A stretch of DNA of 64,000 bases from a virus: positions 1 to 64,000 of IMG/VR virus record IMGVR_UViG_3300022562_001652; one strand, given 5' to 3'. Under the pieces are notes generated by a model. The model worked only from the letters and a program-made list of their open reading frames with translations. It did no database searches and was not told the origin of the DNA. How positions within the stretch are numbered: the first letter of the stretch is position 1; every line of letters begins with the position of its first letter. The translations under genes were made by a program, and so were the position numbers. Below, in pieces: positions 27,054 to 33,209 of this stretch.

Positions 27054-27068
27054 GACGGTGTCCTCCCT

Positions 27069-27362
27069 CTACAAATCAACTGCGCACTCGACGAGACGGA
27101 ACGCCCGCACGCGAGCTTGGGTATTGTATGAGACGATGCCCCTGAAACCCACGACAGGAGCATCCTCCTTAAACAAGGAAGCGATCTCCGCCTCAGCCTC
27201 CTTGAGAGATCTGTGGAGGAGGAGTTTTCCATCAATGTAGCTGTTACGTCGCCAAGAATCCGGCCAAACCCCATCGTGGCAACGTCTCCATTCGACGAGG
27301 TACATGATCACGTCGTCGATCTTTTCGAGTTTGAGCTCCTGTTCCTCTTCGGACGACGCCAT
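27069..27362 (-). CDS. Hypothetical protein
   Basis: AAGGAG RBS before ATG 27362. Confidence 0.55.
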   Translation of the reverse strand: MASSEEEQELKLEKIDDVIMYLVEWRRCHDGVWPDSWRRNSYIDGKLLLHRSLKEAEAEIASLFKEDAPVVGFRGIVSYNTQARVRAFRLVECAVDL

Positions 27363-27364
27363 CT

Positions 27365-29331: not shown

Positions 29332-31404
29332 TTATCCCTTCGCCAACGTCCAGTTCTCCGCGCTTTTTCCCTCGGACGACAGCGGTACGAGCATCCGATT
29401 CTTGTAGGGTTGGGACATATGCCAACTCACACGTTCGAGCGCCCATGAAGAAGCCGAACGTGGGCACTCTCCTACGATCTCGTCGTGCACCTGGCTCAGT
29501 TGGCTGAATCCCTTGCTTCTCAGCTCTTCGTCGTTCTCGATGCGGTTCATCGCTTCTTTGATGATGTCGGCCGCGTCGCACTGAGGCATGTTGCAGCAGA
29601 TCCGTTCCCAGTGCTCACGTTCCCGCTTGTCGAAGCTAGCGAGACCCTCAGCAACGTGCACGCGTCTGCCCGAAATCGTCTCGAGGTATCCCTTCTTATA
29701 CCCCTCCGCGATGGAACGCTTCTGAAAGATCACGAGCTCCGGGTACAGTACGTTGAAGAAGTTGTCGACCAGAGCTTCGTTCTCCTCCTGGACTTCCGGA
29801 AGCCGGGTATCCTGGCGACGACGCCTAGCCAAGGTGTACCACGTACCCCCATAGATCAGCCCGAAGTTCTCTTCCTTCCCGATACGGTAGAGGTCCTTGT
29901 ATTTCTTCTTGAAGGCGTCGAGGCTCTCCGGCGAAGAGAAGACGGCGTCCACGTCTTCGTCGAGATTGAACGAGTGGATCGTCGTGAGGACGTGGATCGC
30001 CGACGGCGCTTTGTACTTCAGCATCGTCTTTAGGAGCCTAGACTCCTCGACCGGAACGAAGCGCCCGACCCTGTTGATCGTGAGAACGAGCTCGAAGCCG
30101 GACATGTCCACCACGATCAGAACGTGGTCTTCTTTAGCAGGTACTCCGCGCGCCGTGATCTGCCCCTTCTTGGGAGCTATGAACCGCTCCTTCACTCCCC
30201 AGGGATCTTTTTCCCCAGGGGAGACCACGTTCTGAAGATTGGCTCCTTTCTTTTCCTTCTTGATCTGCGTCTTCGCCTTGCCGGACTTGAGCTTCCTCTC
30301 GACGATCTTGGACACCGTCCACTTACGAGAAGAGATACGACCTGTGCGCGTTCCGTGCTGGTTGTAGTCGCTGCGAAGCCTGCCGTCTTCCGAACACCCG
30401 CTCATGAGACTCTTGAGATCCTTGGCTAGCTTCGCGTAGACGCTTCTTTTTTGAAAGAGAGTAGCTACTTCGATCCCTTCCTTGATCCAGCGTCTGATGA
30501 CAGCCTGCGTGAATTGAGGCTTTCCGGTCTTCTTGGTGACCAAGTCCGCGTACGTAGGCCACCCGAGCTCCTCGATCAGGACCTGTTTAACCTGGTCCTT
30601 GGCTTCTAAGTTCAGATCCGGATAGCCCATCAGTGCGCGAAGAACGTGCTCCGCCCGAGCCTGTGCTACGAGGGACTTAGAACGAACCTGATCCATCCCA
30701 TCGAGATCGATCAAGATGCCACGATCCTCGCAGCCCATGAGCGTAAGCGTGTACGGCCGATCCACACGGAGATAGGTCTGCCAGTACCCTATGCTCTCGA
30801 GATATTTACGGTGTTTCCAGTAGAGACGGATAGTGTCTTCCGCATCGTCTCCACCGTACTCGTCGTAGACGCGTCTCCATTCTTCAGCCGAACGTGTGAG
30901 TAATGCCCCCTCGGGGAGAGGGGCTCTGCCAGACACCTGGGAGGCATTCAGTTGGAGCGCTGTCTTTCGCCCAGGCAGCTTGTACGAGAAGAGGTTCTTG
31001 AACTCGTCCCTCTTCCTGCCAAGGTACCGACGCGTCTGCTGCTTCAAGCCATGCCGCTCGTTGTTCTCATCCCGAAGCCAGCTCAAGGAGACGATGTCGG
31101 CGTGAAAGCTGGGACGAAGATCTAAATTCCAGTTCTTCAGGAAGGTACGAGCATCAGCCTTGAAGAAGGAGTAGACGATGCGCGACTTCTTGTCACCGAA
31201 CCAATCGGCCAAGACGAACAGGTACTCGGCCTCTACTACATAACGAACCCCCAACCCCCAGGAAAAGCTGAACGTCGTAAGAGTAGACCAGGGCTCTGGA
31301 TCAAACTCCGAATCGAGGGCATAGGGGGTACCGTCCTTGGTAGCTCGCCAAAGTGCATCGAGCGCATGAATCGCTTTCCTCTTGGTATCGATGAGAGTGA
31401 TCAT
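29332..31404 (-). CDS. polA: Family A DNA polymerase with 3'-5' exonuclease
   Basis: ALDSEF (ExoI), TRTGRISS...NLQN, DMSGFEL (motif A), RIGKEENFGLIYG (motif B), QVHDEI (motif C). Confidence 0.95.
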   Translation of the reverse strand: MITLIDTKRKAIHALDALWRATKDGTPYALDSEFDPEPWSTLTTFSFSWGLGVRYVVEAEYLFVLADWFGDKKSRIVYSFFKADARTFLKNWNLDLRPSFHADIVSLSWLRDENNERHGLKQQTRRYLGRKRDEFKNLFSYKLPGRKTALQLNASQVSGRAPLPEGALLTRSAEEWRRVYDEYGGDDAEDTIRLYWKHRKYLESIGYWQTYLRVDRPYTLTLMGCEDRGILIDLDGMDQVRSKSLVAQARAEHVLRALMGYPDLNLEAKDQVKQVLIEELGWPTYADLVTKKTGKPQFTQAVIRRWIKEGIEVATLFQKRSVYAKLAKDLKSLMSGCSEDGRLRSDYNQHGTRTGRISSRKWTVSKIVERKLKSGKAKTQIKKEKKGANLQNVVSPGEKDPWGVKERFIAPKKGQITARGVPAKEDHVLIVVDMSGFELVLTINRVGRFVPVEESRLLKTMLKYKAPSAIHVLTTIHSFNLDEDVDAVFSSPESLDAFKKKYKDLYRIGKEENFGLIYGGTWYTLARRRRQDTRLPEVQEENEALVDNFFNVLYPELVIFQKRSIAEGYKKGYLETISGRRVHVAEGLASFDKREREHWERICCNMPQCDAADIIKEAMNRIENDEELRSKGFSQLSQVHDEIVGECPRSASSWALERVSWHMSQPYKNRMLVPLSSEGKSAENWTLAKG

Positions 31405-31413
31405 CCTACCCTT

Positions 31414-31701
31414 TGGGAACGGTGGTGGGAGTCGAACCCACTAAGATGGTTGCCGCCGGGGTTGAACCGAGAACCGGCTGTCGCAGAGCGACACTGCCTC
31501 TGACGTAGCCACGCGACTCTGGGATCCTTCAGAGATTGTCTCGCGCTAATCCGGCTGCTGGAAGGCCCTGCTCGGAACTCAGCGCCCTTGTCGCTTCCGG
31601 GTGCACTGCACGTAATCATCGCCGTCACCGACGACCGCACACCTCGCAACCTTCCCATCATGTCCAGCACCATGCGTGTCTCCGTCCACGCCGCACCGTT
31701 C
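31414..31701 (-). ncRNA. 288-nt tRNA-like RNA with His-type ends and a ~200-nt insert replacing the anticodon loop
   Basis: G-AACGGTG pairs with CACCGTT-C-CCA; D-arm GCGT-GGACGGAGAC-ACGC; T-arm GTGGG-TTCGACT-CCCAC; closing helix ATGGT-GCTG / CGGC-A-ACCAT. Confidence 0.8.
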
Positions 31702-31707
31702 GAGGCC

Positions 31708-32160
31708 CTACTTCGCCTTCTTGGGAATCTTCATGCCCTTCTTAGGGATCTTCACGCCAGACGACTTCTTGGGAGCTTCCTCCTCTTCCTCTTCCTCTTC
31801 TTCTTCTTCTTCTTCTTCTTCTTCTTCTTCTTCCTCGTCCTCGTCCTCTTCTTCCTCTTCTTCCTCTTCTTCCTCTTCTTCCTCCTCGTCCTCTTCTTCC
31901 GGCTCAGGCTTCTTCGCCTTCTTCTTCGCCGTCACCGTCTTCTTTTTCTCCTCCACTTCCTTCTTCACCTTCTCCTTCTTCTCCACGGAAGTAGTTTCCC
32001 CCGTAGAAGCCTGCCCGAGCCGGACGAAGACGGACAGTTCGGGGATGTTGGTCAGGACAACCTGAATGCGGCGGCGAGCATCCTCGCACGCAGCCTTCTC
32101 GTCGGTCGCCTCCACCAAGAGAACTGCCTTCATGGGAACTTCCACGCGATACTCACTCAT
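31708..32160 (-). CDS. Protein with a long poly-Glu/Asp tract flanked by Lys-rich segments
   Basis: About 40 consecutive acidic residues; AAGGAG/AAGGAAG RBS. Confidence 0.75.
   Translation of the reverse strand: MSEYRVEVPMKAVLLVEATDEKAACEDARRRIQVVLTNIPELSVFVRLGQASTGETTSVEKKEKVKKEVEEKKKTVTAKKKAKKPEPEEEDEEEEEEEEEEEEEEDEDEEEEEEEEEEEEEEEEEEEEAPKKSSGVKIPKKGMKIPKKAK
31779..31899 (-). repeat. (GAA/GAG/GAC)n trinucleotide tract
   Basis: Directly visible; encodes poly-Glu/Asp. Confidence 0.9.
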
Positions 32161-32177
32161 CGTTCTTCCTTTCTCCT

Positions 32178-33209
32178 TCACGACAGCCCGAGGGCTTCTT
32201 TGTCTTCGTCACTAAGCTTCGCCAGAACGTCTGAAGGAAGCTCTTCTGGGTAGCAAGCGATGCCGGCGTTACGAAGGTGATCGATCGCCTCCGTCATGGT
32301 TTCTATCCGCATCCCTTCTTTCTTGTACTTCTTGTAGATCGGGACAACGTCGCGAACAGGAGCAGAGCCAAGCTCGAGTACGGCGTTCACGAAGTACCAA
32401 AGCTGCGTAGCTGGCTTCTCTGGGTTTGTGTCGACCTCGAGCACGCAGAGAATGCGATCGAGATCCAGCTTTTTCTTCTCTTCCGCCTTCGGCTCAGGAA
32501 GAGACACGCCCGCCTTCTGAAGGACAACAGAAAAACCGTCCCTCATGTTCCCGAGAAAGCTGCGCACGCACTCTGCCTGGTCGGGACAAGCCGAACATTC
32601 GGCAGAAGCCATGTCCACGTATATCCCGAAGCAACCACAAGCCTTGATGAGCTTGAGAGTCTCTTCTCCAGGAAGACGGCTCAGGATCTCCTTCTTCTCT
32701 GCCTCATCCATAGATGAGAGGATGGAGTGGATCTCCAATCGCAATCCCTCATCAGAGACGTCAGAATTCGCCCTCTCCGAGTAACTCACGAGAGCGCCAG
32801 CCTTCTTGAGCTCGGCGAGCGTAGCTAGCAAGATCTCTCGATCCAGCATCTTCGATGGCTCTAGTTTCGACTCCAGCTTCGGCTTCGGCTTCTTTTTCTC
32901 CCTCTCTTCTTTTTCTTCTTCCTCCTCTTCGTCGTCGTTCTTCTTCTTCTTTCTCTTCTTCTTGACACTGGTCTTCTCTTCCGTCTTCTTCTCGGCGGTG
33001 TCGGGTGCGTCTTCGATCGTGATCCCCTTGTCACGGAAGAAGCGGCGGGCGGCTACGAGCGGCTTCTCCCCTTTCTGAATCGCTTCAGCCATGACGACCT
33101 TCAAGCGACCCGCGTGACGAGGAGCCAAACCACGCCCCTTGAACTTCTTGTCGTAGAGAGACGAAGCCTTGTCGGTGGCTTCTTGCTTAACGTTTGCCTT
33201 CGTTCCCAC
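32178..33209 (-). CDS. Hypothetical Lys/Glu-rich protein with CFG...CxxCP...C motif
   Basis: AAGGAGG RBS; 343 aa. Confidence 0.75.
   Translation of the reverse strand: MGTKANVKQEATDKASSLYDKKFKGRGLAPRHAGRLKVVMAEAIQKGEKPLVAARRFFRDKGITIEDAPDTAEKKTEEKTSVKKKRKKKKNDDEEEEEEKEEREKKKPKPKLESKLEPSKMLDREILLATLAELKKAGALVSYSERANSDVSDEGLRLEIHSILSSMDEAEKKEILSRLPGEETLKLIKACGCFGIYVDMASAECSACPDQAECVRSFLGNMRDGFSVVLQKAGVSLPEPKAEEKKKLDLDRILCVLEVDTNPEKPATQLWYFVNAVLELGSAPVRDVVPIYKKYKKEGMRIETMTEAIDHLRNAGIACYPEELPSDVLAKLSDEDKEALGLS

Follow-up and report, generated by a model that had tools for sequence, protein, structure and literature searches.

The locus examined here raises a simple question: what lies in the gap between the gene for an acidic protein and the gene for the DNA polymerase of a phage? 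The host record is a complete IMG/VR virus genome of 113,815 bp with direct terminal repeats, and the window, by which we mean the whole stretch of DNA that was analysed, comprises its first 64 kb (64,000 nucleotides). The gap had been predicted, from the sequence alone, to encode a giant tRNA-like RNA with a histidine-type acceptor, intact D and T arms, and a large insert in place of the anticodon loop. Reading of the - strand together with an inverted-repeat scan recovered G-1, the acceptor, the D stem, the T arm, C73 and CCA as described. The claim that the element almost fills the gap is also correct, as only 6 nt separate its 5' end from the stop codon of the acidic-protein gene (31708) and 9 nt separate its CCA from the ATG of the polymerase gene (31404). 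The features of the region are as follows.

31708-32181, - strand: upstream gene, encoding a 157-aa acidic, low-complexity protein (from the ORF list; Pfam matches of low complexity only; coding by codon statistics)
31414-31701, - strand: the complete tRNA-like element (288 nt), with G-1 at one end and the encoded CCA at the other (strand reading, fold and inverted repeat)
31694-31701, - strand: G-1 (31701) and acceptor 5' strand AACGGTG (31700-31694) (strand reading, inverted-repeat scan)
31674-31691, - strand: D arm, with stem GCGT/ACGC (31691-31688 / 31677-31674) and the 10-nt loop GGACGGAGAC (pairing probability 0.6-0.68)
31665-31673, - strand: 5' strand of the proposed extended anticodon helix, ATGGTGCTG (low ensemble probability, ~0.06)
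31456-31664, - strand: orphan insert of ~209 nt in place of the anticodon loop, with several local hairpins
31446-31455, - strand: 3' strand of the proposed anticodon helix, CGGC-A-ACCAT, shared with the strand GCAACC of a rival helix
31442-31445, - strand: variable loop CTTA (strand reading)
31425-31441, - strand: T arm, GTGGG-TTCGACT-CCCAC (strand reading and fold; part matched by the family model R1, see below)
31414-31424, - strand: acceptor 3' strand CACCGTT (31424-31418), discriminator C73 (31417) and encoded CCA (31416-31414)
31401-31673, - strand: 90-aa ORF overlapping the element, judged spurious (no homolog, codon statistics)
29332-31404, - strand: downstream gene, encoding a family A DNA polymerase (PF00476, 2.4e-38)

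The acceptor end of the element corresponds to inverted repeat I5, whose 8-nt arms are 100% complementary and lie 269 nt apart. The acceptor helix has 8 bp, G-1:C73 followed by AACGGUG/CACCGUU, and its 3:70 pair is C-G. The dinucleotide CG (positions 8-9) connects the acceptor 5' strand to the D stem, and the GG in the D loop GGACGGAGAC occupies the position of G18 G19. Compared with canonical tRNA (RF00005), the element has the 7-bp acceptor stacked on a 5-bp T stem and the T-psi-C loop, but the 5-bp anticodon stem and 7-nt loop are replaced by ~220 nt, the size of the insert once its closing helix is counted. None of the four helices contains a mismatch, and the T loop is canonical. By our own rough estimate, reasoned over the ~45 T-arm-like motifs of the phage genome and not the output of any tool, a perfect 7-mer partner within 600 nt combined with a D arm and a closing helix, each correctly offset, G-1:C73 and CCA would arise by chance with a probability of ~1e-8 or less.

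In the unconstrained thermodynamic ensemble the acceptor, T stem and D stem form with probabilities of 0.99, 0.92 and 0.65, respectively. The extended anticodon helix of the original prediction, ATGGT-GCTG / CGGC-A-ACCAT, is possible in that forcing it incurs a penalty of only 2.4 kcal/mol, but it does not dominate the ensemble, where its probability is ~0.06 against 0.86 for the rival helix GGUUGC/GCAACC. The hairpins listed for the insert are present, three of them in the minimum free energy (MFE) fold. The MFE of the whole element is not better than that of shuffled sequences (z = 0.30).

The source annotation places a gene, the 90-aa ORF, across most of the element. We rejected this ORF as a protein gene. 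In each of the three frames its codon log-odds fall below zero, and its GC content by codon position is 0.56/0.62/0.65 as against ~0.6/0.4/0.68 in the neighbouring genes. Pfam and PHROG gave no matches to it, and no homolog was present among 5.8 billion proteins. Nor does the element belong to a known RNA family. ARAGORN called neither a tRNA nor a tmRNA at the element with default settings, and did not call it at the default threshold with introns allowed. Rfam gave no match at gathering thresholds over the whole window; that scan is filter-limited, since it missed a 48-bit tRNA-like match of another tool, and the relevant negative is therefore a permissive search of 601 nt, in which no tRNA (RF00005), tmRNA, group I intron, ribozyme or Y RNA rose above noise. 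The element at 31414-31701 is thus a non-coding, unclassified tRNA-like RNA, as had been proposed; group I intron and bacterial Y RNA, both named at the outset for the Rfam check, find no match.

Is the element one of a kind? A scan of the phage genome for a T arm followed by an acceptor strand revealed a paralog of 88 nt outside the window (110417-110504, + strand), as well as four shorter acceptor/T-arm elements at 105-107 kb. The paralog reads G-1, AACGGCG ... CGCCGTT, C73, CCA, so that its acceptor is that of the giant element with a single compensatory change, U6-A67 to C6-G67. It scores 44.7 bits against Rfam tRNA, with 19 nt where a 7-nt loop is expected, and 70.7 bits against model R1. 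Relatives elsewhere were sought in two ways: a 3'-anchored search for a T loop followed by YRCCGTTCCCA in IMG/VR, metagenome and genome contigs, and a 5'-anchored search for the motif AACGGTGTAGCTCA in IMG/VR. A covariance model, R1, built from 15 members, was then run over the loci already collected. Leaving aside a few ordinary tRNA(CAU) genes and fortuitous matches within coding sequence, the matches with structure fall into a single family, the His-type anticodon-variable tRNA-like elements, which we define by alignment A3 and model R1. It has 33 distinct members from phage, metagenome and bacterial contigs.

All 33 members have an AACGGUG-type acceptor (consensus AACGGYG / CRCCGUU), which no canonical tRNA shares in any of the collections searched. 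The T arm is normal in every member except one, whose T loop is off consensus (L064b, GTCGTCG). Most members outside the 5'-anchored set have a normal D arm, and in a few the D hairpin is reduced or missing. It is the anticodon arm that varies. It is absent from the shortest form, a 35-nt, 13-bp minihelix (the L025 type, on five contigs), and elsewhere is a 3-4 bp stem capped by GAAA, GCAA, GUAA or GAGA, or carries loops of 4-5 nt, loops of 7 or 9 nt, or inserts of 20-75 nt. Tetraloop caps and missing arms mean that this is not a decoding family. The homolog search and covariation check proposed at the outset yielded a family with support for its structure: in alignment A3, pairing holds in 99.2% of cells and compensatory changes occur at five pairs, values reached by 0 of 500 shuffles, and sliding the structure by 1-3 columns lowers the paired cells to 30-57%. 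This covariation holds at the level of the family. Inserts can also be under selection, since two members of 128 nt from another sublineage (L042 and L079) share a ~60-nt insert of two hairpins that has been kept with four compensatory pairs.

How well does the giant element fit this family? Its acceptor matches the consensus in 7 of 7 pairs. Its D arm, CG-GCGU-...-ACGC, departs from the consensus UA-GCUC-A..GG..A-GAGC, and positions 8-9 are off consensus as well. Model R1 matches only the 3' part of the element (17.6 bits, E = 0.07) and not its full length; because the model is unable to span the insert, membership rests on the manual parse. On that parse, the element would be the largest member seen of a family of anticodon-less, histidine-type tRNA look-alikes. 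What is unusual about it is the size of the insert and its tie to the histidine-type subfamily.

The histidine mark deserves separate attention. G-1 is present in 25 of the 33 members and was imposed by no search. The 3'-anchored pattern imposes C73 and CCA, so its matches are uninformative on these; C73 is, however, also present in the 5'-anchored matches. Neither base was imposed on 13 members, of which eight came from the 5'-anchored scan and the other five were extra copies in fetched contigs; among these 13, G-1 and C73 are each found in 12. The giant element and its 88-nt paralog both have the G-1:C73 pair, and the acceptor is therefore not a one-off. The premise that this pair marks a substrate of histidyl-tRNA synthetase (HisRS) is borne out by published work: HisRS charges 13-bp minihelices and 8-bp microhelices bearing G-1:C73, and the transplanted pair confers histidine acceptance (PMC9976931), while irregular tRNAs with G-1 are charged by E. 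coli HisRS and remain unused in translation (PMC5389517).

The second regularity of the family is its position relative to genes. An ATG follows the 3' end by 13-23 nt, via an A/U-rich leader, in 19 of the 22 relatives checked, and the 9 nt of the giant element were counted as fitting this short distance. Two contigs (L192 and L026) carry a row of small, mutually unrelated ORFs with one element per ORF, which ties the element to gene starts and not to one protein. A minihelix lies between an Enc34-type SSB gene and PolA, within a replication module, and two long-insert members lie 3-6 nt past DnaD-like genes. This fixed place ahead of start codons points first to a role in cis, in mRNA processing, a possibility that the original prediction had not raised. 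The features kept throughout the family, namely the 12-bp acceptor/T stack, the T loop, usually the GG of the D loop, and the NCCA tail, are those by which bacterial RNase P, and the enzymes that mature and read tRNA ends, recognise a substrate. The family elements probably recruit the tRNA-processing enzymes of the host.

We favour, with a probability of roughly 0.55, the reading that the giant element is a tRNA-like processing element lying within an operon and bearing a greatly enlarged anticodon arm, whose released RNA may be chargeable by HisRS. What the sequences show directly is the anatomy, the non-coding status, family membership through the shared acceptor, the covariation of the family and its spacing to start codons; that the RNA is transcribed, cut and charged in the manner set out next, and that the insert has a function, is inferred. 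The replication operon would be transcribed through the element between the acidic-protein and polymerase genes. Host RNase P would cut at the 5' side, probably leaving G-1 as in tRNA-His, and a 3' endonuclease followed by trimming would define the CCA end. The two cistrons would thereby be separated, and the polymerase mRNA would be left with a very short leader. The RNA set free would be a CCA-ended species of ~288 nt, in which G-1:C73 could permit charging by HisRS but no decoding, and in this copy the anticodon arm would have expanded to an orphan domain of ~220 nt. Beside the element, no sigma-70 promoter or intrinsic terminator consensus was found, and the element region has no direct repeats or iterons suggestive of a replication origin. 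In a search of sequencing runs, the sequence was present in one DNA run only, from a marine sediment metagenome that is probably the source sample; in the runs that matched over a small share, RNA runs included, the match was limited to a low-complexity acidic repeat at 31906-31998.

Elements with such a role are known from organelles. In plant mitochondria, RNase P and RNase Z recognise t-elements and thereby set the ends of mRNAs (Forner et al., 2007, PMC1920247). CCA is added to these structures, yet they are not charged with an amino acid and stand outside translation (PMC11658184). Unlike the giant element, they are organellar, derive from recognisable tRNA genes, and lack an encoded CCA and G-1:C73. 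The proposed punctuation of mRNA is a functional analogy only. A bacterial precedent is YrlA of M. smegmatis (Chen et al., 2014, PMC4201824). Its tRNA-like module has an acceptor stem of 7 bp, undergoes RNase P cleavage in vivo and is there given a CCA end; the tRNA fold has been proposed to protect the RNA. Bacterial and phage Y RNAs of this type resemble our element in having a D arm, a T arm and an acceptor-like stem without an anticodon, but differ in that the RNA ends form the Ro-binding stem, the acceptor is capped and the topology is permuted. Neither a Y RNA family match or Ro-binding motif at the giant element (Rfam, 601 nt) nor a TROVE gene in the phage was found.

A further likeness is to the G-1 tRNA1 species described by Mukai et al. 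(2017, PMC5389517), which combine a tRNA body and G-1 with a non-His or unusable anticodon. These come from soil bacterial metatranscriptomes, possibly acidobacterial, and occur in arrays (polycistrons of irregular tRNAs); they are charged by E. coli HisRS in vitro with no use in translation. They differ from the giant element in still having an anticodon loop of 7 nt (GGU); of the two that were tested, one has an 8/4 structure. They also have neither a large insert nor a fixed place before start codons, unlike the present family.

A processing signal by itself does not explain two observations, the retention of 220 nt and the conservation of G-1:C73. Both fit better the alternative that the element is a trans-acting non-coding RNA built on a tRNA body. 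The top half would then serve for excision, CCA acquisition and nuclease resistance, the 220-nt insert would be cargo, and the G-1:C73 end would allow histidylation or binding to HisRS or EF-Tu; such an RNA might, for instance, be a decoy against toxins that attack the acceptor end of tRNAs. RNAs have been placed in the anticodon stem of tRNAs in engineered tRNA scaffolds for the sake of processing and stability, and the giant element resembles such a scaffold. The L025-type relative is, likewise, exactly the 13-bp G-1:C73 helix with CCA of the synthetic histidine minihelix (PMC9976931). Minihelices and scaffolds are laboratory constructs, however, and a natural role of this kind is hypothetical. 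The conservation of G-1:C73 exceeds what the searches imposed, and paralogs within one genome keep the acceptor while their D, T and variable regions diverge; the conserved insert of L042/L079 and the charging of G-1:C73 minihelices and of untranslating irregular tRNAs by HisRS agree with action in trans as well. Against it, the insert of the giant element has neither a homolog nor a family match nor excess stability, and of the eight relatives that lack G-1, seven are long-insert members (93-128 nt). The plant t-elements, moreover, show that an RNA can gain CCA without being aminoacylated (PMC11658184). Genes for HisRS, a CCA-adding enzyme, Thg1 or Ro60/TROVE were not found in the phage, so any processing or charging would rely on the host. 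We consider a trans-acting RNA unlikely on this evidence. Its most explicit form, a natural tRNA-scaffolded RNA in which a His-type top half gets a 220-nt cargo excised, CCA-ended, stabilised and possibly histidylated, with the cargo or the charged end acting in trans, e.g. as a decoy for acceptor-end toxins, HisRS or EF-Tu, is about equally unlikely, and the decoy or capture functions first proposed for the element are speculation.

The element could also be a decaying relic, either a former family member or a tRNA gene into which unrelated DNA was inserted. We found no homolog of the insert, the D arm is off the family consensus and the MFE is unremarkable, all of which a relic would explain. 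Four helices without a mismatch and a canonical T loop are hardly those of a decaying gene, however, and the acceptor agrees with the consensus at every pair and the spacing to the ATG follows the rule of the family. In a variant, the 90-aa ORF would be a real orphan gene; a gene caller does call it, but the ORF fails codon statistics in every frame. Decay in either version strikes us as improbable, more so than action in trans.

Group I introns interrupt bacterial tRNA genes within the anticodon loop, as in cyanobacterial tRNA-Leu and Azoarcus tRNA-Ile, and the present arrangement, tRNA halves flanking ~200 nt at the anticodon position, is superficially the same. An intron, whether group I-like and self-splicing or of another kind, would on splicing restore a decoding tRNA. 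ARAGORN does propose a 199-nt intron after U33, ending in G, when run with -i -ps80, but only at the price of mismatches in the anticodon stem and an unusual variable arm of 15 nt. Where group I introns in tRNA genes match the group I core, the 601-nt search gave no match to group I (RF00028) or a ribozyme at E up to 10, and no P1/IGS pairing was evident on manual inspection. The relatives, tetraloop-capped or armless, are non-decoding and do without anticodon loops altogether, so that we regard an intron as very improbable. The reading first offered, a ribosome-rescue RNA akin to tmRNA but with His instead of Ala identity, can practically be dismissed: the element shares with tmRNA (RF00023 and relatives) the layout of tRNA-like ends, with acceptor, T arm and CCA, around a large internal domain, but has C3-G70 in place of the G3:U70 alanine identity and a true D stem that tmRNA lacks, the pseudoknots and tag ORF of tmRNA were not found in it, neither ARAGORN -m at -ps60 nor any Rfam tmRNA family recognises the element, and a tag ORF would not fit into the relatives, the smallest of which is a minihelix of 35 nt.

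If the processing reading is true, phages from sediment, ocean, soil and gut have in common a compact RNA device ahead of their genes, consisting of the top half of a tRNA, often His-marked and without an anticodon. The logic of organellar 'tRNA punctuation' would then extend to phage operons, and the family would offer a natural set of testable substrates for HisRS and RNase P, from a 35-nt minihelix to a 288-nt giant. Should the scaffold reading be the true one, the family would provide phages with a general means of producing stable small RNAs. The giant element would indicate that the anticodon position tolerates very large inserts, which bears on the origin of non-coding RNAs from tRNAs. 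The family also bears on annotation, because scans for tRNAs and Rfam families miss such elements and gene callers put false ORFs in their place.

When the insert was compared by BLAST with the full phage genome and every fetched locus, nothing beyond chance matches of 11-13 nt turned up, and a permissive search gave no Rfam family match. An exact scan of IMG/VR with 28 nt of the 3' end of the element had no matches, and the element with 5 kb around it, compared by DNA similarity with GenBank phages, returned nothing useful. The polymerase has no cultured relative, as the identity in tblastn was at most 27%. Closer polymerases are known as proteins, one with 63% identity (P0002) and others with 44-48% (P0004-P0007); protein-pattern scans of genome and metagenome contigs for polymerase relatives found none. 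We compared 22 relatives from IMG/VR, at 35-41% identity over most of the polymerase, with two weaker partial matches at 22% and 28%, and none has a tRNA-like element ahead of the polymerase gene. At the equivalent position in a 37%-identical relative (L012) there is a 350-nt gap with a T-loop-like hairpin only, which is not tRNA-like. A distant member of the His-type family, L216, adjoins a Ro60 gene. Two of the relatives of the phage, L004 and L018, do carry tRNA-like elements, with other acceptors, between a homolog of the 358-aa protein of the window and RecA.

The phage carries further tRNA-like elements besides the 288-nt giant, both in the window and elsewhere in its full record (G000):

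Window 16943-17101, - strand: tandem pair of tRNA-like genes, called Ile(aat) and Stop(tta) by ARAGORN
G000:110417-110504 (= L024:6917-7005, a stretch of the same record), + strand, outside the window: 88-nt paralog that shares the giant's acceptor, G-1, C73 and CCA
G000:105090-105141, 105785-105845, 106793-106930 and 107119-107165, + strand, outside the window: four more acceptor/T-arm elements, in intergenic gaps

Both genes of the tandem pair have a 9-nt anticodon loop, and one of them scores 48.1 bits on the Rfam tRNA model (RF00005), a match that the whole-window Rfam scan at the gathering threshold did not report. The 'anticodon' arm of the 88-nt paralog is an 11-bp helix ending in the loop UCGUAA, and a Cys-rich 98-aa ORF begins 34 nt after the element. 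The four elements at 105-107 kb have acceptor sequences different from that of the giant; three terminate in an encoded CCA and the fourth (107119-107165) in CTA, and one of the four gives a weak match (27.8 bits) to the mascRNA model.

Several members of the His-type family also carry long inserts:

L042:617-745, - strand: long-insert member
L079:298-425, + strand: long-insert member
L248:5650-5757, - strand: long-insert member, Trinickia symbiotica isolate
L216:858-1163 and 1272-2912, Abditibacteriaceae MAG: 146-nt member with a 75-nt hairpin insert, and the neighbouring Ro60/TROVE gene

The inserts of L042 and L079 are homologs of each other and show four compensatory pairs. DnaD_N/HTH_36 replication genes end 3-6 nt before the L042 and L248 elements. 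In three members (L084:371-480, L248:5650-5757 and L250:7098-7213, all - strand) the anticodon loop is replaced by UUCNCUAC, a hairpin and GG(G), and this shared sequence motif suggests a conserved extra arm. Two Ro-binding-like stem-loops (RF01656 matches, 30.5 and 39.4 bits) flank the 146-nt member, which lies directly upstream of the Ro60/TROVE gene; the locus possibly encodes a Y RNA of an unusual kind.

Other elements are found in replication modules or before small ORFs:

L056:4782-8105, + strand: His-type minihelix of 35 nt, a 13-bp helix that includes G-1:C73 and is followed by CCA, and its module
L004:8038-8092 (55 nt) and L018:7928-8078 (150 nt), + strand: tRNA-like elements of two relatives of the phage
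L192:4040-5650 and L026:517-2990, + strand: cassette arrays of tRNA-like elements

The minihelix module, ordered Enc34-type SSB gene, minihelix, 58-aa ORF and PolA, is present in five contigs (L056, L025, L054, L077 and L091). The elements of the two relatives have A73, lack CCA and separate RecA from a gene whose product is homologous to the 358-aa protein of the window; the equivalent gap in the window (27054-27364) is occupied by a small ORF instead. Each array cassette runs from a tRNA-like element through a 13-21-nt A/U-rich leader, in which a Shine-Dalgarno motif is absent, to the ATG of a small ORF, except that one L192 copy has no nearby ATG. The ORFs belong to at least four unrelated families, and most encode 57-116 aa.

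The scans also met irregular tRNA-like RNAs and tRNAs of other kinds:

L032:12572-12648 and L141:8067-8143, - strand: a further conserved irregular tRNA-like RNA

This RNA has a short acceptor and an arm capped by GCGAAAGC, and adjoins a His-type family member in both contigs. Phage tRNA(CAU) genes in five loci (L028-L031 and L088), matched by a 3' pattern that itself imposes C73 and CCA, combine an N1xU72 mismatch with C73 and an encoded CCA; the N1xU72/C73 acceptor end is odd for Met/Ile2-type tRNAs.
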